From assembly GCA_944358535.1 (NCBI GenBank), contig CALVRH010000002.1:27840-91839 (forward strand): DNA of 64,000 nucleotides, given 5' to 3'. This document shows, piece after piece, positions 1,194 through 53,734 of this stretch. Each line of letters begins with the position of its first letter. Within the stretch, counting starts at the first letter, position 1. The stretch is from an uncultured Bacilli bacterium. Lineage in GTDB: Bacteria; Bacillota_I; Bacilli_A; RF39; UBA660. The notes below the pieces were generated by a model, which was given only the letters and a program-made list of their open reading frames with translations, did not search any database and was not told where the DNA came from. The position numbers and the translations under genes are program-made.

Positions 1194-1793
1194 TTATGAG
1201 ATGGTTGTTCTATCTTCAATGGCCATTTCTAAGGTTAGAGGATCGATGTAATCAATGTCTGCTCCTAGTGGAATTCCATGGGCTATTTTTGAAATTTTTA
1301 CGTCAGTTCCTTCTAATAATTTTCTTATATATAAAGCAGTAGTTTCACCTTCAACACTTGGTTTTATGGCAAGTATTACTTCTTTAATATTTTCATTTTT
1401 AATTCTATTAATTAATTTGTCAATATGAATATCTTCAGGATTTATTCCTTCTAATGGAGAAATTAATCCTCCTAAAACATAGTATATGCCTTTAAATGAA
1501 CCTATTTTTTCAAAGAGAATAACATTCTTGCATTCTTCAACAACACAAATAGTTGATGTATCTCTAGATTTATCAGTGCATATTTGACATAGATTTTCTT
1601 CTGTTAAACTACCACATTTAGAACATTTTTTTATTTTTGTTTTACTATCATTTAATGATTTACTGAATAGGTCAATTATGTTATTATCCATGTTTAAAGT
1701 TGATAGAGCAAGTCTTTCAGCAGTTTTTTCACCGATGCCTGGAAATTTTTTAAAGCATTCGATTAAGTTTAATATTGTTTTTGGATAATTCAT
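1194..1793 (-). CDS. recR: recombination protein RecR
   Basis: 199 aa with HhH N-terminus, C4 zinc finger CSKCGSLTEENLCQIC and a Toprim domain. Overlaps the ybaB stop. Confidence 0.92.
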   Translation of the reverse strand: MNYPKTILNLIECFKKFPGIGEKTAERLALSTLNMDNNIIDLFSKSLNDSKTKIKKCSKCGSLTEENLCQICTDKSRDTSTICVVEECKNVILFEKIGSFKGIYYVLGGLISPLEGINPEDIHIDKLINRIKNENIKEVILAIKPSVEGETTALYIRKLLEGTDVKISKIAHGIPLGADIDYIDPLTLEMAIEDRTTIS

Positions 1794-2089
1794 TAGAATA
1801 GACCTGGCATTCCTTTAGTATATTTTCCCATTTTTTGTTCTGTTTCATTATCTATTTGGTGATTGGCGTCATTTATCGCAACTAAAATCATGTCTTGTAG
1901 CATTTCTATGTCATCTTTGTCTAGCTTTTCAGCGTCAATTTTTACTTCTACTACTTCTTTAGTCCCTTTAACTTTAACTGTTACGAGAGATGATTTACCT
2001 TCAAAAGTTTTTTCATCTATTTCTTTTTTTTCTTTTAACATATCATTTTGTAATTTTTGGGCTTGTTTCATCATTGCTTGTATATTCAT
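1793..2089 (-). CDS. ybaB: nucleoid-associated protein YbaB/EbfC
   Basis: 98 aa, starts MMKQAQKLQ and ends MPGLF. Conserved dnaX-ybaB-recR context. Confidence 0.88.
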   Translation of the reverse strand: MNIQAMMKQAQKLQNDMLKEKKEIDEKTFEGKSSLVTVKVKGTKEVVEVKIDAEKLDKDDIEMLQDMILVAINDANHQIDNETEQKMGKYTKGMPGLF

Positions 2090-2107
2090 TTTATTTCCTT
2101 CTTTCTA

Positions 2108-3865
2108 TTAATTGTATTCTATTATATCTTCAAACATTGATTCAATATTGTTTTTTGAATCATCTTCTTTAAAGATATCTTCTAATTTAAATTGTTCTTC
2201 TTTATAAATAAATGGTCTTAATTTATGATTAAAATCATTTTTAATTATTTCCCATTCATCTAAATTAGTTGCAATTAAATTATATTTTTTATTTAAAATT
2301 TTTTCAATAGTTTCTTCGAGAATTGGTAAATTTTCATTAAATAAGTCAGATAATCTATTTGTTTTAAAAACAAATATTAAATTTTCATCACTTGCAGCTT
2401 TTAAGGTACCATCTAAAATAATAGATGCTGAATGACTATATTCTGGGTCTAGTAATAAATCATTTAATAGTTCTAATGACGGGGTGATGTTTCTAACTTC
2501 TTGTTTGCTAAATTTAGCAAGCGTATTATCAATTCTAATTTGTTTTATTTTTTCAATATTATTTTTTAAGTTTTTGTTGATTTTTGGAATTTTTGGAGGT
2601 GTTTTAACTAATTCTTGAGTTGGTTTGTCGATTTCAACATTTTTTTTGTTTGGTTTTTGTTCGTTATTTTCGTTTTTATCATTAGAGTTTTCCACATTTT
2701 TTATTTGATTTTGTGGATAACTAACTATTTTTACTGAATTTTCATAATTTTTTTGTTCTAAACGTGCTTGTTCTGTGTTTTTTTCCACTATTTGTTGTTT
2801 TTTTTCAGAAATTATTTTAATAAGAGCTAATTCAAATAGTAATTTACTATTTGTATTATTTTTCATTTCAAAAGAGTATTTATTTAGTGTTTCAATGATT
2901 GTAAAAAGTTGATCTATATTAATTTTTGAAGAAATATTTTTATAAGTTTCAATATTTTTAGTATTTTCTTTAAAATAATTAGGTGCTTCTATAAATAAAA
3001 TAGTATTTCTTATAAATTCAATAAATTCTTCAATTAATTTAACAAAATCTTTTCCTTTATCATTATAGTTATCAATTTTTTTTAATATTTGATCTAATTT
3101 ATTATCTATTATGTTTTCTAATAGTTCACTTAGGTCTTCTTCGGTTAAAGTTCCGTTAATGTCATGAATATCATTTATGGTTATTTTTCCTTCGGTATAA
3201 GCTCTAGCTTGGTCAAGCATTCCGACAGAATCTCTCATTCCACCATCAGATAATTTTGCAATTTCATATAAGGCATTTTGATCAATATCTATTTCTTCTT
3301 TTTTGGCAATTTTACTAAGGTTTTCCACAATTGCATCATTGGTTATTTTTTTAAAATCTAATCTTTGACATCTAGATAGAATTGTTTCTAATACTTTGTG
3401 TGGATCTGTGGTGGCTAGAATAAATATTACATGAGCAGGGGGTTCTTCTAATGTTTTTAATAGGGCATTAAAGGCTCCTTGAGTAAGCATATGTACTTCA
3501 TCTATGATGTAAACTTTATATTTTCCATAAGCTGGTAATAAATTTATTTTATTTCTTAATTCTCTTATTTCATCGACACCATTATTACTAGCAGCATCAA
3601 TTTCAATAATATCGCTATTGTTTTCTTCTAAACAACTTACACATTTTCCACATGGCTTGCAATCTACGGGATGTTCACAGTTAATTATTTTAGCAAAGAT
3701 TTTGGCGATGCTGGTTTTACCAGTTCCTCTTGGACCAGCAAATAGGTAAGCATGGTTTATTTGATTATTTAGTATTGAGTTTTTTATAATTTTTACGATG
3801 ACATCTTGTCCACAGACATCATCGAGGGTTTTTGGTCTGTATTTTCTATATAATGCTTGATACAT
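2108..3865 (-). CDS. dnaX: DNA polymerase III subunit tau (gamma/tau)
   Basis: 585 aa with Walker A GPRGTGKTS, zinc module CGKCVSC, Walker B IIDEVHML and sensor SRCQRLDF, followed by a Lys/Asn-rich linker and C-terminal domain. Confidence 0.93.
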   Translation of the reverse strand: MYQALYRKYRPKTLDDVCGQDVIVKIIKNSILNNQINHAYLFAGPRGTGKTSIAKIFAKIINCEHPVDCKPCGKCVSCLEENNSDIIEIDAASNNGVDEIRELRNKINLLPAYGKYKVYIIDEVHMLTQGAFNALLKTLEEPPAHVIFILATTDPHKVLETILSRCQRLDFKKITNDAIVENLSKIAKKEEIDIDQNALYEIAKLSDGGMRDSVGMLDQARAYTEGKITINDIHDINGTLTEEDLSELLENIIDNKLDQILKKIDNYNDKGKDFVKLIEEFIEFIRNTILFIEAPNYFKENTKNIETYKNISSKINIDQLFTIIETLNKYSFEMKNNTNSKLLFELALIKIISEKKQQIVEKNTEQARLEQKNYENSVKIVSYPQNQIKNVENSNDKNENNEQKPNKKNVEIDKPTQELVKTPPKIPKINKNLKNNIEKIKQIRIDNTLAKFSKQEVRNITPSLELLNDLLLDPEYSHSASIILDGTLKAASDENLIFVFKTNRLSDLFNENLPILEETIEKILNKKYNLIATNLDEWEIIKNDFNHKLRPFIYKEEQFKLEDIFKEDDSKNNIESMFEDIIEYN

Positions 3866-38094: not shown

Positions 38095-39180
<1,086 letters not shown>

Positions 39181-40209: not shown

Positions 40210-40241
40210 AAGATGACATTATTATAGTGAGGAGGAATTTT

Positions 40242-40517
40242 GTGTTCGATTTAGTATCTAAATTTGATCCGAGTGGTGATCAACCACAGGCAATAGATGA
40301 ACTTGTTAAAGGAGTAGAGGAAGGAAAAAAATTCCAAGTATTATTGGGGGCAACGGGTACTGGTAAGACTTTTACGATAGCTAATGTTATTCAAAAAACT
40401 CAAAAGCCAACGCTTGTTTTAGCTCATAATAAGACACTAGCTGGACAGTTATATGGAGAACTCAAAGAGCTCTTCCCAAATAATCACGTGTGCTATTTCG
40501 TTTCTTATTATGATTAA
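40242..40517 (+). pseudogene. uvrB: uvrB 5' stub 1 (codons 1-91, ends at the element junction)
   Basis: GTG start after GAGGAGG. The 91 codons match the N-terminus of the intact UvrB at 51785 almost exactly and include Walker A GATGTGKT. The stop is created at the junction TATTATGATTA-A. Confidence 0.9.
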
Positions 40518-40569
40518 AATAAAAAAACGTTGAAAAATAAGGTTTTTTGATGTTATTAAATCTATAAAA

Positions 40570-41784
40570 ATGTACAAAAAAATACCAAATTCAGAAGTTC
40601 CTAAATTTAAAGCTACATATACTGATACAATAAGTGTTTATATTGTGCCATCTGACATTGCTGTTGCTATTGAAAATTTGAATGAAAGAGATATAGATTC
40701 TAGGGAATTGGAAAAGCGAATCTCTGATATAAAAAATGAATTGGCATTTTTTTCTGAATTAAATACTAATTGTTTTGATTATATTTTAGTTAATGATTAT
40801 AATATTTATAGTGTAAAAGAATTTAATGATTTTATTTCCAAGACGTTAAATATTAATATTAATAAAGATTTACAAGATAATGATTTTTTGAATTATATTC
40901 CATCTGATATAAAAAAAGAAGTAGATGAATTTGTTACAAAGGCGAAAAAGTCAATTCTATATACTTCATTTGATGGTGACGATATGCATTATTTAAATGA
41001 TATATGTAATGATGTGATAAATAGAGAAGAAATACCACTAAATCCAGAAGCAGCTTTAGGTTATTATGTATCCACTGTAACTCTTGGTGGTACAAAACAA
41101 AAAGTGATGGCAGATTGTTTAACTTTAGAAATGTTATCTGATAAATTGTATGTTTATCGAAATGATGATGTAGATATATCTGAAGGAATTATTGCCGAAT
41201 TGATACTTTGGAATATTATTAAAAATCAAGGCTTTTCTTTTATACATGATGTTAGAAGATTAGAAAATCCTAAAGATGATATTTTAAGTGGAAGTGAACT
41301 TAGCCAATGGATTAGCAGTCAAGATTCTGTGTTGAATCAAGAACTGTTTCACAATTTATTAAATAGTTATATGAAACAAAATCATGAATCAGTTTATATT
41401 ATTGCGAATTTTAAAAATTTTAAACACATTGATTGGGCAAGAGCATATTGTTATGATAGTGACTTATGTCCTATAAGTCCTCAAAACATTCTACCTTTTT
41501 CATTATATAAGAATGATGAAAACAATTATTTAGAGTCTAGATTAAATTTACTAGACAGAGTGAATCAAGTATTTCTATTTATTGATAGATTTAATGAGAA
41601 AGAGGAAATAAAAAATTTAGATAAGTTTTCTTTAGCAGAGTTATATTATTTAAAGGAATATTGCCCTAATAAAATGTTTACTATAATTGGTTGGAATCAA
41701 GCTAATGTTCCAAAATATGACAAAGGTAAAAAATGGTCGTTGACAAGTAAGGAAGATATTAAGGTTAGAAGGTTGGTAAAATAG
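40570..41784 (+). CDS. multidomain protein: guanylate-kinase C-terminal-like segment plus two nucleoside 2-deoxyribosyltransferase/DUF4406-like modules
   Basis: The first ~95 aa resemble the lid/C-terminal part of Gmk (VYIVPSD...FDYILVNDYNIYSVKEF) without a P-loop. Two repeats follow the pattern ILYTSF..IPLNPE..SDKLYVY..SEGIIAEL and VYIIANF..PISPQ..VFLFID..SLAELYY. No clear SD. Confidence 0.4.
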   Translation: MYKKIPNSEVPKFKATYTDTISVYIVPSDIAVAIENLNERDIDSRELEKRISDIKNELAFFSELNTNCFDYILVNDYNIYSVKEFNDFISKTLNININKDLQDNDFLNYIPSDIKKEVDEFVTKAKKSILYTSFDGDDMHYLNDICNDVINREEIPLNPEAALGYYVSTVTLGGTKQKVMADCLTLEMLSDKLYVYRNDDVDISEGIIAELILWNIIKNQGFSFIHDVRRLENPKDDILSGSELSQWISSQDSVLNQELFHNLLNSYMKQNHESVYIIANFKNFKHIDWARAYCYDSDLCPISPQNILPFSLYKNDENNYLESRLNLLDRVNQVFLFIDRFNEKEEIKNLDKFSLAELYYLKEYCPNKMFTIIGWNQANVPKYDKGKKWSLTSKEDIKVRRLVK

Positions 41785-41820
41785 TTTTTTCATGTTATAA
41801 TCAAATATAGGTGTTTAAAT

Positions 41821-42594
41821 ATGAAAATAATAAATAATGATGAAAAAATTAATAATGTGTTAAAAGTTTTTTTACCAACAGTAGAACAAGATTATAGTAT
41901 TTTAAAAGGTAATTTGTTAAAAGAAGCTGAAAAAAGTTTTATTTATGATAATCCTAATGCTTTTGTGATAGGTTTAATATCTGATCAATCGGTTAAAGCA
42001 GAGTTGGCGTGGAGTTTACCTTATAATTTATATAAGAGATTGGGTACTTTTAATTTTAAAAATATAGTACAAAACTTTGATGTTGAGTCTTTAGAAAAAG
42101 TTATCAAAGAAAAGCCTGCATTACATAGGTATCCAAATAGAATGGCGAATTATATATTTTTTGCAATGAAGAAAATATTGGAAGATTATAATAATGATGC
42201 ACAAAAAATTTGGAAAAATCAACAGGCTAGTGTTATTGTGAAAAGACTAGAAGAATTTAAAGGAATTAGTCATAAAAAAGCTTCTCTAGGAACATTAATT
42301 TTAATTCGTGATTTAGGAGTAGATATTGAAGATAAACAAAATATTGATATTGCTTATGATGTACATATTCGACGAATCTTTTTAAGAATGGGTTTGGTTG
42401 AAAAAGATACACAGGAAGATATTATAAATAAAGCAAAGCAAATTAATCCTAAATTTCCTGGCGAATTGACTACTTCATTTTGGGCTATTGGTAGAAAATA
42501 CTGTTTTGCAAATAATCCGAGTTGTGAAGCGTGTCCGTTAAATCATTATTGTAGAGAGTATAAATTGAAAACAACTATGAAAGTGGGTGCGTAA
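41821..42594 (+). CDS. HhH-GPD superfamily (endonuclease III-like) DNA glycosylase homologue with Fe-S cluster loop
   Basis: HhH FKGISHKKASLGTLILIRDLGV, Asp-containing YDVHIRRIFLRMGL (cf. VDTHVxR) and Cys loop CFANNPSCEACPLNHYC. Confidence 0.55.
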   Translation: MKIINNDEKINNVLKVFLPTVEQDYSILKGNLLKEAEKSFIYDNPNAFVIGLISDQSVKAELAWSLPYNLYKRLGTFNFKNIVQNFDVESLEKVIKEKPALHRYPNRMANYIFFAMKKILEDYNNDAQKIWKNQQASVIVKRLEEFKGISHKKASLGTLILIRDLGVDIEDKQNIDIAYDVHIRRIFLRMGLVEKDTQEDIINKAKQINPKFPGELTTSFWAIGRKYCFANNPSCEACPLNHYCREYKLKTTMKVGA

Positions 42595-43174
42595 TTTGAA
42601 ATTAATATTAGCTTCTTCGTCTAAAATGAGAAAAGAAATATTACAAAAGGTTGGTTTGAAGTTTACAGTAATTAGTAGTGATGTTGATGAGCAAACGAGT
42701 GCTAATACAAATGAAGAATATTTGATTAATTTATCTAAATTAAAAGCAAATAAAATTGCTTCATCTTTATCTGAAGGTGTAGTTATTGGGGCTGATTCTA
42801 TGATATGTTTTAATGGAAAAAGAATTGGAAAACCTAAAACTAAAGAAGAAGCAAGTAGAATTTTAAAAGAATTATCTGGGAAAGTTAATTATGCTTTAAC
42901 CGGAGTTACTATTTTGGATTTATATACTGGTAAAAGCGTGTGCTTTTGTGAAAAAACGAAAGTTTATTTTGATGAATTGTCTGATGAGGAAATAGAATGG
43001 TATATAAATAATGAGGAACATATTTTAGAACGTGCAGGATATTCGTTGGCTGGAAAAACAGCAGTGTTTATTCCTAGAATAGATGGAGATTATTATAATG
43101 TTTTGGGTATGCCTATATGTAGAGTTTATAAGGAATTAAAAAAACTTGGTTATAATTTGTCTGATTTCGAGTAA
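42587..43174 (+). CDS. maf: Maf-family nucleoside triphosphate pyrophosphatase
   Basis: LILASSSKMRKEILQKVGLKF..SDVDE, GADSM, YNVLGMP. Start is either GTG 42587 or TTG 42595. Confidence 0.8.
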   Translation: MRNLKLILASSSKMRKEILQKVGLKFTVISSDVDEQTSANTNEEYLINLSKLKANKIASSLSEGVVIGADSMICFNGKRIGKPKTKEEASRILKELSGKVNYALTGVTILDLYTGKSVCFCEKTKVYFDELSDEEIEWYINNEEHILERAGYSLAGKTAVFIPRIDGDYYNVLGMPICRVYKELKKLGYNLSDFE

Positions 43175-43453
43175 AAATATTATTATTGAAAGAAAATAAT
43201 AATATTTTTTTATAAATATTTTTAATTGTAGTGATGTATTGTTGTTTTATACTATTATAAATGATAAAATATCTAATAGCTTTAAAATTAGTGTTATTTG
43301 CTTCAAGTAATATTATTTAGTTATTTTATATGATGTTTAGTAAATTTGTGACTTTTTCGCGTTGCGAAGTTAAAAATAGTCAAAATTTGAGTAAAAAAAT
43401 TAGTGACTTTTTGAAAAAATATGCTGATAATTGTCATAATAAGGAGGGATTTT

Positions 43454-43729
43454 GTGTTCGATTTAGTATCTAAATTTGATCCTAGTGGTGATCAACCAGA
43501 GGCAATAGATGAACTTGTTAAAGGAGTAGAGGAAGGCAAGAAATTCCAAGTATTACTGGGCGCAACGGGTACTGGTAAGACTTTTACGATAGCTAATGTT
43601 ATTCAAAAAACGCAAAAACCAACACTTGTTTTAGCTCACAATAAGACACTAGCTGGACAGTTATATGGGGAACTTAAGGAACTCTTCCCAAATAATCATG
43701 TTTGTTATTTCGTCAGTTATTATGATTAA
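43454..43729 (+). pseudogene. uvrB: uvrB 5' stub 2 (codons 1-91)
   Basis: GTG start after AAGGAGGG. About 93-95% nucleotide identity by eye to the other two copies, with mostly synonymous changes. Same junction stop. Confidence 0.9.
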
Positions 43730-43984
43730 AATAAAAAAAACGTTGAAAAATAAGGCTTTTTAATGTTATTTAATTCATAAAAATGTATAAAATAGTACTA
43801 AAAAAACGAAATAATATAAGCTGAAAACATAGAATTTGTGACCTTTATGCGTTGCAAAATGGAATTACGAATTTTATTAATATGAAACTATAATTTTTTA
43901 TAACATATTTTTGCTTGTGTACATAGCCATTTTATTTTATAAGATGGCTAATTTTTTTTATGGAAAGGAGGGTGAAAAATATTA

Positions 43985-44083
43985 ATGAATGGAAAAATTA
44001 TTGCTGTTGTAAATCATAAATGTGATGTTGGTAAAACTATAATAGTCTTTAACTTATGGGGTAACTTTAACAAATTCTGGTAA
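43985..44083 (+). pseudogene. ParA/Soj-type ATPase relic (32 codons)
   Basis: MNGKIIAVVNHKCDVGKTIIVFNL corresponds to the deviant Walker A KIIAVxNxKGGVGKTT and is then truncated. Good SD. Confidence 0.5.
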
Positions 44084-51561: not shown

Positions 51562-51784
51562 CATGAGTAGTTGTGTTAATTTATTATAAATGATAAAATA
51601 CATAATAGCTTGAAATTATTGGTGTTATTTAAGTTTATTTAATGCTATTTAATGTTGTTTTGTGTTATTTAGTAAGTTTGTGACTTTTATGCGTTGCAAG
51701 ATTAAAATTTTGAAAAAAACGGTGGATATTTGTATTTTTGCAACGAATTTAATGGTTAGTAGTAGTCATAGTGAGGTGATAAAA

Positions 51785-53734
51785 ATGTTCGATTTAGTAT
51801 CTAAATTTGATCCGAGTGGTGATCAACCACAGGCAATAGATGAACTTGTTAAAGGAGTAGAAGAAGGAAAAAAATTTCAAGTATTACTAGGGGCAACGGG
51901 TACTGGTAAGACTTTTACGATAGCTAATGTTATTCAAAAAACGCAAAAACCGACACTTGTTTTAGCTCACAATAAGACACTAGCTGGACAGTTATATGGG
52001 GAACTCAAAGAGCTTTTCCCAAATAATCACGTGTGTTATTTTGTCTCATATTATGATTATTATCAGCCAGAAGCTTATGTGGCTAAAACTGATACTTATA
52101 TAGAAAAAGATGCTTCAATTAATGATGAAATTGATGAACTTAGACATTATGCGACTGCATCACTTTTAGCTCATAAAGATGTAATTGTGGTGGCCTCTGT
52201 TTCTTGTATATATGGTATTGGAGAGATTGAAGATTATAAGAAAAAAGTTTTATTTTTAAGTGTTGGAGAGACTGTAGATAGAGATCAAGTCATTGAAAAA
52301 TTGATTGAAATGCTTTATGAGAGAAATAATATTGATTTAAAACGTGGTACTTTTAGAGTCCATGGAGATGTTTTAGAAATTGTTCCTATTGGGCAGCATG
52401 CTCATGGGATTAGAGTAGAGTTTTTTGGTGATGAAATTGATAGAATTAGTGAGTTTGATTTAGTTACTGGAACTTTAGTAAACGATAAAAAAACTTATAC
52501 ATTATTTCCCGCAAGTCATTTTGTTACTAATGATGAAAAATTGAAGATTGCTATTGAAAATATTAAGAAAGAATTAGAAGGGCAATTAGAAAAGTTTCAA
52601 AGTGAAAATAAGTTACTTGAGTATCAAAGATTAAAAGAAAGAACTAATTATGATATTGAAATGCTTTCGGAAACAGGTTCTTGTAGGGGAGTAGAAAATT
52701 ATTCAGCACCACTCGCTTTAAGAAAACCAGGAGAGATGCCAACAACTTTAATTGATTTCTTTGGTGATGATTTTTTGCTTGTTGTCGATGAATCTCATGT
52801 TACATTACCACAAGTTAGAGCTATGTACAATGGAGATAGAATGCGTAAGCAAGCTTTGGTTGATTATGGTTTTAGACTTCCTAGTGCACTTGATAATAGG
52901 CCTTTAAAGTTTGAAGAATTTGAGGGTAAAATTAAACAAGCAATATTTGTTTCTGCAACACCAGGAGATTATGAGATGGAAAAAGTTCATAATAAGGTTA
53001 CTGAACAAATTATAAGACCAACAGGTTTATTAGATCCAAAAATTGAGGTTAAACCGACTAAAAATCAAATAGATGATTTAGTTAGTCAAATACATAAACA
53101 AATAGAGAAAAATGAAAGAACTTTAATTACAACTTTGACAATTAGAATGGCTGAAGAATTATCGGTTTATTTGAAAAATTTAGATATTAAAGTTGCTTAT
53201 TTACACAATGAGATTAAGACTTTAGAGAGAATGCAGATAATTCATGATTTGAGGGTTGGTAAATATGATGTGGTTGTTGGAATTAATTTACTTCGTGAGG
53301 GAATAGATGTTCCAGAAGTTAGTTTGATTGCAATAATGGATGCGGATAAACAAGGATTTTTACGAAGTGAACGTAGTTTAATTCAAACAATTGGTAGAGC
53401 TGCTCGTAATGCGAATGGTAGAGTTATCATGTATGCGGATGAGATAAGTTCAGCTATGGATGCAGCTATAAAGGAAACTAATAGAAGAAGAAGTATTCAA
53501 GAAGCATATAATGAAAAACATGGTATTATTCCAAAAACAATTATTAAAGAAATACGTGAAGTTATCTCTAATAAGTTTGAAATTAAAGAGAAAAAAGAGA
53601 AAAAGATGACTAAGAAAGACAAAGAAAAATTGATGTTTGATTTAGAACATGAAATGAAAGAGGCAGCTAAGAATCTTGATTTTGAAAGAGCTATGGAGCT
53701 ACGTGATGCATTATTTGAGATGCAAAGTGAATAA
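51785..53734 (+). CDS. uvrB: excinuclease ABC subunit B
   Basis: 649 aa with [16 protein letters not shown], helicase motifs and a C-terminal UVR domain [16 protein letters not shown] at 51785 follows GTGAGGTGA; the ORF-track N-terminal extension is non-homologous. Confidence 0.95.

Follow-up and report, generated by a model that had tools for sequence, protein, structure and literature searches.

We analysed a 64,000-nucleotide (nt) stretch of DNA, referred to here as the window, from an uncultured Bacilli bacterium (assembly GCA_944358535.1, contig CALVRH010000002.1, positions 27,840–91,839 of the forward strand), in which three genes lie between truncated copies of the 5′ part of uvrB, within an element that we termed E1. 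The three open reading frames (ORFs), all on the + strand, are located where the original prediction, made from the letters of the window, had placed them, and encode a truncated guanylate kinase (GK) joined to a C-terminal part that we call X (protein 1), a helix–hairpin–helix (HhH)-GPD glycosylase homologue with an Fe–S-type cysteine loop (protein 2) and a Maf nucleotide pyrophosphatase (protein 3). We found that these genes are the remainder of a conserved, mobile cassette with the order CYTH, GK-X, Fe–S HhH-GPD and Maf. The source genome (1.33 Mb, approximately 25% GC, 55 contigs) is 90.5% complete, and the metagenome runs that contain this DNA come mostly from chicken gut. Between 39.7 and 53.7 kb of the window, a DUF1810 gene is followed by uvrB′ copy A, the three cassette genes, uvrB′ copy B, a second element of approximately 8 kb (E2) and intact uvrB, with the following features:

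40227–40517, + strand: uvrB′ copy A, the original 5′ end of uvrB, now displaced; 96 codons, with a stop directly after ...SYYD
40518–40589, + strand: left-end arm of E1; deletion junction at 40589/40590
40570–41784, + strand: truncated GK-X gene (404 amino acids (aa)); guanylate kinase C-terminal half and two DUF7768/DUF4406-like modules
41821–42594, + strand: endonuclease III/MutY-type Fe–S HhH-GPD glycosylase paralogue, intact (257 aa)
42587–43174, + strand: cassette-type Maf nucleotide pyrophosphatase, intact (195 aa, GTG start); the sole Maf found in the genome
43175–43429, + strand: right-end arm of E1, with which the element brings the region upstream of uvrB; 21-nt motif at 43345–43365
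43430–43729, + strand: uvrB′ copy B, the 5′ end supplied by E1 and severed on insertion of E2
43730–44080, + strand: left end of E2; shared arm, 21-nt motif at 43835–43855 and remnant of a ParA-like pseudogene at approximately 43986–44080
51563–51760, + strand: right-end arm of E2; 21-nt motif at 51677–51697
51782–53734, + strand: intact uvrB, its first approximately 96 codons from E2; 84% identity to uvrB of locus L002 over 648 aa

Linkage and distribution of the cassette genes

We collected 30 public genome loci carrying an X homologue, from gut and rumen Bacilli, Erysipelotrichaceae and Clostridia and from one member of the Chloroflexia (locus, genome and protein numbers given with L, G and P are our own). 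X was accompanied by an HhH-GPD gene, either adjacent or fused, at 27 of these loci, by a guanylate kinase module at 26, by Maf at 20 and by CYTH at 5; linkage of the triad in other genomes, the absence of which would have refuted the original prediction, was therefore found. The loci that lack HhH-GPD are L018, L029 and L031, the last of which is the Chloroflexia relative (26% identity), and L029 (positions 2013–3650) carries a NUDIX gene followed by a 396-aa fusion of a radical S-adenosylmethionine (SAM) domain with the second X module. Among the ten loci without Maf, four (L008, L011, L012 and L020) stop within or just past the HhH-GPD gene, L004 has a Maf pseudogene, and L026 and L027 have a SAM methyltransferase in the Maf position. 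At these last two loci (L026:7941–9836 and L027:3719–6527), in which X and HhH-GPD are fused, the methyltransferase is followed by a Pycsar-type TIR effector (L026) or by a Pua-like and calcineurin-like phosphoesterase protein (L027).

The cassette genes co-occur across Bacilli and Clostridia at 45–60% identity and in two gene orders, with the kinase fused to X in the Bacilli forms. Homologues of protein 1 take three forms: proteins of approximately 500 aa in which the guanylate kinase domain is complete and has the P-loop 'GMSGVGKS' (44 of 120 among the homologues listed), proteins of approximately 311 aa that consist of the C-terminal part alone, that is, of X, and proteins of 550–580 aa in which X is fused to HhH-GPD (8 of 120 among those listed). 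More distant relatives of X are fused to CYTH, to a methyltransferase (P0280), to HhH-GPD or to Ppx/GppA, and one form joins NUDIX to DUF7768 ×2. It might be argued that the three genes were left in a decayed island by chance, or are housekeeping genes with no connection to each other, for the window copy is damaged and its island has no recombinase. Set against this are the co-occurrence at such divergence in two gene orders, the several Rosetta-stone fusions that link cassette genes, a clade of Maf proper to the cassette and the presence in the genome of a canonical HhH-GPD gene and a gmk that are distinct from the cassette genes, and we consider that explanation barely credible.

The cassette is rare and accessory, and is carried on mobile elements among gut bacteria. 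X was found in 4 of 37 genomes of the genus, in one of them as a fragment only, and in 3 of 399 genomes of the class, and of 61 genus genomes nine gave a Maf, which in seven lies inside the cassette. Other settings of the cassette include a Mob_Pre relaxase (L014), a large serine recombinase (L017) and NikA (L007). Analysis of 138 neighbour proteins from the 30 loci with PADLOC revealed candidate defence genes within 6 kb at approximately seven loci (an SNF2 DpdE/ZorD-like protein at L007, RhuM/PDC-S05 at L010, YhcG/PDC-S02 at L011, PDC-S01 at L017, Cas9 at L021, a PycTIR-like protein at L026 and a match to the 'Hydrolase' model at L027), and these neighbours are only suggestive. ABC-ATPase matches to mad3 and mad8 near the cassette were set aside as generic. 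A literature search on DUF7768, and on HhH-GPD, Maf, guanylate kinase and deoxyribosyltransferase together, found no published account of the cassette.

A deletion removed the kinase P-loop

Protein 1 gave no Pfam match at E ≤ 0.01. Its residues 12–89 match the C-terminal half of guanylate kinase only (TIGR03263 positions 105–178 of 180; 24.7 bits against a cut-off of 160.45), and in structure comparisons made domain by domain with VIA, residues 1–99 of the model corresponded to the same half of 2qor (residues 98–196, Z 9.2); a complete, P-loop-bearing guanylate kinase domain is lacking in the window protein. Foldseek with the whole three-domain model returned meaningless global matches only (TM ≤ 0.21). 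Orthologues that are 94–98% identical to protein 1 are 499–506 aa long and have the P-loop intact, and one full-length orthologue (P0004) matches PF00625 with 73.3 bits over positions 2–180 and carries the P-loop 'GMSGVGKS'. Comparison of the window with the 98%-identical locus L002 revealed that positions approximately 4818–5999 of L002 (1.18 kb), comprising the CYTH gene and the first approximately 102 codons of the kinase–X gene with the P-loop, are missing from the window. The window ORF begins with seven fortuitous codons of the element end and continues with residues approximately 103–499 of the full protein; its ATG at 40570 falls inside the left-end sequence of E1 and is merely in frame, and no Shine–Dalgarno-like stretch was found upstream of it.

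The 1.18-kb deletion is real and polymorphic. The junction at 40589/40590 is spanned by Logan contigs from three other studies (runs X4, X5 and X6), and a contig of run X8 that starts at this junction has a loose end leading into the intact gene. Intact kinase–X and E2-less forms coexist with the window arrangement in the chicken-gut metagenomes (runs X4–X8). The original prediction had described a guanylate-kinase-like N terminus without a P-loop, and the likeness holds for the C-terminal half of the kinase; however, the P-loop is missing because the gene is truncated at its 5′ end, and the P-loop-less kinase is a product of the deletion rather than of design. The cassette copy in this genome is damaged, having lost CYTH and the kinase P-loop, and the cassette is probably crippled here.

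Module X and its predicted relatives

The model of protein 1 (predicted local distance difference test (pLDDT) 89.5) contains two Rossmann-like modules within X, at residues approximately 127–252 and 271–387. The two aligned with each other in hhalign (77–84%, E approximately 1 × 10−5), with 'SEGIxAE' of module 1 falling on 'SLAEL' of module 2, and X is an internal duplication, a tandem pair of DUF7768/DUF4406-type modules. Glu205, Glu210 and Glu357 are invariant in 75 sequences. A profile built from X only, searched against 1.84 billion representative proteins, found just 175 at E ≤ 0.001 and recovered P0380 (E = 3.9 × 10−8), which scores 113.7 bits with DUF7768 and 23.8 bits with DUF4406 (cut-off 22); hhalign of the X profile with P0380 gave 98% (E = 2.4 × 10−13) over 101 columns of module 1, and the homologues P0055 and P0105 exceed the DUF7768 cut-off in module 2. 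Because the sequence link runs through P0380, P0055 and P0105 and not through PF05014, we place X with DUF7768/DUF4406, where it seems to be related to deoxyribosyltransferases at the level of the superfamily and is not a member of PF05014. DUF4406, which we take to be a member of the deoxyribosyltransferase clan, had a single match in 400 genomes of the phylum. In a protein atlas, clusters of DUF7768 and DUF1937/DUF4406 came up at a score of only 0.83, which is the level of a lead, and a sequence search of the PDB with the X profile returned one chance-level match only.

The top structural matches of module 2 were nucleoside 2′-deoxyribosyltransferases (NDTs), namely 8rh3 (Z 7.9; root-mean-square deviation 2.6, 100 residues aligned) and 6evs (Z 7.9), followed by 7o62 (Z 7.2), 1f8x (Z 6.7) and the N-glycosidase MilB (4ohr, Z 6.7), with TIR and ThsB domains close behind (Z approximately 7). 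Module 1 matched CD38-like, TIR and Toprim domains at Z 6–7, with a maximum of Z ≤ 6.9. The deoxyribosyltransferase/DUF4406 pattern of the original prediction was thus upheld as a superfamily-level link, through P0380 and module 2, but was not matched by PF05014 itself.

These matches bear on a different reading, in which X is a TIR- or SLOG-like enzyme acting on NAD+ or a signal nucleotide and the cassette is an immune system of the signalling type. TIR domains, ThsB and a CD38-like toxin score Z 6–7 against the two modules, and at L026 the Pycsar-type TIR effector is encoded two genes downstream. We nevertheless regard this reading as highly improbable, as the sequence-level link leads to DUF7768/DUF4406 and not to TIR families, the best structural matches of module 2 are deoxyribosyltransferases, and the fusion partners of X are nucleotide phosphohydrolases and a kinase and not sensors or effectors.

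The placement beside NDT-like enzymes, which we prefer, can be compared with DNPH1 and MilB, described (PMC10603095, PMC10483697 and PMC4081090) as N-glycosidases of (deoxy)nucleoside monophosphates ((d)NMPs) within the NDT superfamily. X would share with them the Rossmann-like fold seen in the MilB comparison and the same proposed release of a base from a nucleoside monophosphate, for sanitation or base supply. In contrast to them, X gives no profile match to PF05014 and holds two modules in one chain, and its chemistry is predicted.

The Fe–S HhH-GPD protein

The assignment of protein 2 to HhH-GPD with a cysteine loop of the endonuclease III type was borne out (PF00730, 30.3 bits against a cut-off of 26.2; cysteines 228, 235, 238 and 244), except that the spacing is C-x6-C-x2-C-x5-C and not, as first read, C-x7-C-x2-C-x5-C. 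The model (pLDDT 93.7) gave endonuclease III (1orn) as its best Foldseek match (E = 2.2 × 10−7, TMt 0.76) among 55 PDB matches at E ≤ 0.001, and the ranks shown comprise endonuclease III, MutY/MUTYH, NTHL1, ROS1 and thymine-DNA glycosylase. The loop C228-x6-C235-x2-C238-x5-C244 aligns with that of 1p59, and D180, in 'YDVH', aligns with the Asp of 'IAVDTH' in Geobacillus endonuclease III (1p59/1orn) and is invariant in 61 protein 2 sequences. In the same set K152, D180 and the four cysteines are invariant or nearly so; K152 and K153 are both invariant, and in the model the second HhH helix begins with them; their equivalence to the Lys of bifunctional glycosylase/lyases is our own reading of the motif.

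Protein 2 thus resembles endonuclease III and MutY in its predicted fold, in the alignment of the catalytic Asp and in the four-Cys loop, but differs from them in an N-terminal helical extension, in a longer stretch between HhH and Asp and in scores far below the equivalog cut-offs (nth TIGR01083, 26.7 against 211.7 bits; mutY, 25.6 against 286.5 bits). Among NCBIfam models it comes closest to TIGR03252, which is uncharacterised (83.8 bits against a cut-off of 136.5). Because it falls below the nth and mutY cut-offs and the genome has a stronger canonical HhH-GPD gene on another contig (88.6 bits), protein 2 is not the nth of this organism; rather, it is an endonuclease III/MutY-type Fe–S HhH-GPD paralogue that, by model and alignment, has kept the fold, the aligned Asp and the four-Cys loop.

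The cassette-type Maf

Protein 3 was correctly recognized as a Maf protein (PF02545, 175.6 bits against a cut-off of 27; TIGR00172, 169.2 against 117.15). The original prediction had asked for a check on further maf copies, and a search of this 90.5%-complete genome yielded no second copy. PMC3899018 names six signature residues, of which our check covered three (Ser10, Arg13 and Asp70, which are universal); all three are kept in protein 3, by alignment to 1ex2, and in 19 of 19 cassette Mafs. The subfamily-specific positions, in the numbering of PMC3899018, read R-T-Q in YhdE and W-Q-E in YceF, whereas the cassette Mafs have T/M/S-S-A in 19 of 19 (T-S-A in sixteen, M-S-A in two, S-S-A in one), and the window protein has M-S-A. 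The triad of protein 3 fits neither subfamily, and two non-cassette Mafs of the genus differ from the cassette triad. The cassette Mafs form a clade of their own, while sharing the fold and the three signature residues with YhdE and YceF, and protein 3 is predicted to be a house-cleaning nucleoside triphosphate (NTP) pyrophosphatase. In Bacilli loci Maf lies downstream on the same strand; in Clostridia loci it is divergent and solitary, and does not stand within a maf–radC–mreB row.

Proposed function of the cassette

The partners of X trim phosphates, phosphorylate a GMP-like monophosphate or cut the N-glycosidic bond in DNA, and the simplest common denominator is that X would act on a (d)NMP. 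By analogy with DNPH1, MilB and the phage enzyme DmtZ, which all act in this manner, we infer that X is a (d)NMP N-glycosidase or phospho(deoxy)ribosyl transferase, a prediction in which the substrates are guessed. In the scheme that we propose, Maf and CYTH (elsewhere NUDIX or Ppx/GppA) would trim a nucleotide to its monophosphate, X would act on the N-glycosidic bond of this (d)NMP to cleave off or exchange its base, a GMP-like monophosphate would be handled by the kinase module, and the HhH-GPD enzyme would remove the same kind of base from DNA. In this way the cassette would most likely exclude a non-canonical base, probably a guanine-like one, from both the nucleotide pool and DNA, either as sanitation or as defence against phages with modified DNA, a proposal to which we give an even chance.

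Several observations weigh against this proposal. The structural scores of X (Z approximately 7–8) are in the range common for unrelated Rossmann-like folds, for which the tool issues a warning at Z under 8, and TIR and Toprim domains score nearly as high as deoxyribosyltransferases; against a profile of 20 genome-derived PF05014 domains, both modules gave hhalign probabilities below 1%. The assignment of K152 as the Lys of the HhH motif is based on motif reading and predicted helices and not on a printed alignment. PADLOC-DB 2.0 contains no family that matches any of the three proteins at E ≤ 0.1, and none of 63 pattern matches in viral contigs was a relative of X. The cassette is often decayed in the genus, with four of seven carriers damaged (G000, G017, G023 and G079). 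Finally, the kinase fits a catabolic 'purge' awkwardly and a biosynthetic or salvage swap of bases better.

The kinase thus leads to the main rival of the purge, in which Maf and CYTH would convert a (deoxy)nucleoside triphosphate to (d)NMP, X would move the phospho(deoxy)ribosyl group onto a different base, guanine-like or modified, and the fused kinase would phosphorylate the product towards the triphosphate, the purpose being to rebalance deoxynucleoside triphosphates (dNTPs) in an auxotroph with a small genome or to make a modified DNA nucleotide. Here the kinase, which occurs at 26 of the 30 loci and in Bacilli belongs to the same protein as X, would have a natural forward role; the host genome is small (1.33 Mb), and a methyltransferase replaces Maf at L026 and L027 and is fused to X in P0280. 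A precedent for this kind of transfer, which speaks for the purge scheme as well, is found in phages with the Z genome (PMC12884076): there the dAMP N-glycosidase/transferase DmtZ, of the NDT family, and the dNTP hydrolase DutZ have adjacent or fused genes, and the product of DmtZ is then phosphorylated. DutZ–DmtZ resembles the cassette in that an NDT-superfamily enzyme acting on a deoxynucleoside monophosphate is encoded beside, or fused to, a dNTP hydrolase. However, DmtZ as described there is a single NDT-like domain in phages, whereas X is predicted to be a tandem DUF7768/DUF4406-type pair in bacterial mobile elements, is joined to a guanylate kinase module, an Fe–S HhH-GPD protein and Maf, and gave no relative in our search of viral contigs, where pathways of this kind are typical. 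A swap also leaves no clear role for the DNA glycosylase that is adjacent or fused at 27 of the 30 loci, and no polymerase, base-synthesis or transglycosylase gene is linked in the loci. We judge the swap rather unlikely on balance. The pathway of base exchange or modification put forward in the original prediction is retained as one possibility, with several others beside it.

Within the purge reading, a more specific version is that the intact cassette is a new mobile multi-enzyme immune system against phages with modified purines, for example 7-deazaguanines, that would act at two levels: Maf and CYTH, then X, would drain the pool, and incoming DNA would be cleared of the same base by the HhH-GPD enzyme. 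A gene set in genome G028, described below, would be its thymine-side counterpart. We offer this version tentatively, as a possibility that has clearly less than an even chance. Reported defence glycosylases provide a precedent for the purge: Dag1 and Dag2 are HhH-superfamily proteins on mobile DNA that excise modified guanines from phage DNA containing 7-deazaguanine (bioRxiv 10.1101/2025.10.29.685425), and the glycosylase Brig3 works with a helper, BapA, an accessory base-modifying enzyme encoded in one operon (bioRxiv 10.64898/2026.02.25.707755). In common with protein 2 they involve an HhH-fold glycosylase carried on mobile DNA, a comparison that for the Dag proteins goes by description only. 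These are single proteins or pairs, for which no association with a kinase, an NDT-like protein or Maf is reported; 'kinase' as a word does not appear in the main text on Dag1 and Dag2.

If the proposed function is correct, the cassette would be a compact, transferable pathway that unites house-cleaning NTP pyrophosphatases, NDT-superfamily (d)NMP N-glycosidases or transferases and base-excision glycosylases, which are usually studied apart. It would also provide the first functional context for DUF7768 and for a third specificity class of Maf, as well as a candidate partner system for the newly found defence glycosylases.

Tandem elements at the uvrB hotspot

E1 and E2 are separate elements that belong to one family and lie in tandem, and not, as had been proposed, a single nucleotide-centric insert at 40–52 kb. 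Nor is uvrB, inside which the insert had been placed, disrupted: uvrB stays intact because each element carries a replacement 5′ end. The three copies of the uvrB 5′ part (40218–40517, 43430–43729 and 51761–52060) are 87–92% identical to each other, and the protein of copy A is 99% identical to the 5′ end of intact uvrB. In a repeat comparison, approximately 74 nt downstream of copies A and B are alike (85%), as are approximately 140 nt upstream of the second and third copies (76–81%). Extra truncated 5′ copies of uvrB occur in at least 12 of 61 genus genomes.

A complete integrative and conjugative element (ICE) of 28.7 kb lies between a uvrB′ copy and uvrB in genome G065 (L044 and L045, G065:C2:17500–48500). 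It encodes ParA and ParB on the uvrB′ side, a relaxase, a coupling protein (T4CP), VirB4 and PrgI, and two adjacent tyrosine integrases next to uvrB. Further genes of the ICE encode MazF, a sortase, an adhesin with a thioester domain and, between NikA/MobC and the relaxase, a reverse transcriptase. Its left arm, right arm and 21-nt motif (TTTGTGACYTTTWYGCGTTGC) are shared with E1 and E2, and the E1 left arm is found beside uvrB′ also in L033, L049, L046, L050, L037 and L040. The motif TTTGTGACYTTTWYGCGTTGC has three copies in the window, all in the same orientation (43345–43365, 43835–43855 and 51677–51697; 0 expected by chance), is found near both ends of uvrB-targeting elements, recurs in other islands and at either end of the G065 ICE, and may be an arm-type integrase site. 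We found a recombinase in neither E1 nor E2, and contig C2 has no integrase. The remnant of a ParA-like ORF (approximately 30 codons, 43986–44080) lies at the left end of E2, which corresponds to the ParA-bearing end of the intact ICE, and at L010 an integrase fragment follows directly after Maf. Because the arms and the motif are shared with the G065 ICE, and in view of the E2 ParA pseudogene and the L010 integrase fragment, E1 and E2 are decayed tandem derivatives, resembling integrase-less cis-mobilizable elements (CIMEs), of one ICE family that inserts at approximately codon 96 of uvrB.

Contigs of runs X4 and X8 have loose ends at 43728 that read on into intact uvrB and represent E2-less forms. 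The tandem E1–E2 form is also present in run X4, because a contig of this run spans the uvrB′ B/E2 junction. Misassembly over the uvrB′ repeats was considered as a source of the tandem and rejected, as the longest exact runs between the copies are 50–76 nt and contigs from independent studies span both the deletion junction and the uvrB′ B/E2 junction. The arrangement fits the scheme of CIME–ICE tandem accretion in streptococci, described in PMC5704250. The target here, however, is the 5′ part of uvrB at approximately codon 96, the hosts are uncultured chicken-gut Bacilli, and excision and transfer of the elements are putative. The locus documents an ICE family with the uvrB 5′ part as its integration hotspot in small-genome gut Bacilli, together with tandem accretion of decayed elements.

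The same hotspot holds a 3.2-kb island in genome G028, between a uvrB′ fragment and uvrB (L047, G028:C7:23000–27600; ORFs at 1360–3762). It encodes a second thymidylate kinase, a protein of the uracil-DNA glycosylase superfamily, a MazG-like protein and a 313-aa PF05014 deoxyribosyltransferase, a set that is functionally analogous to the cassette. The C-terminal half of this deoxyribosyltransferase was considered as a second NDT-like module and set aside, as the match is weak (hhalign 5–9%).

Upstream of the cassette region, a gene for a collagen-repeat (GxT) protein on the − strand (38095–39081) forms a local GC peak of approximately 42%, against 25% for the genome, and at L011 the uvrB′ fragment is likewise preceded by a similar collagen-repeat gene.

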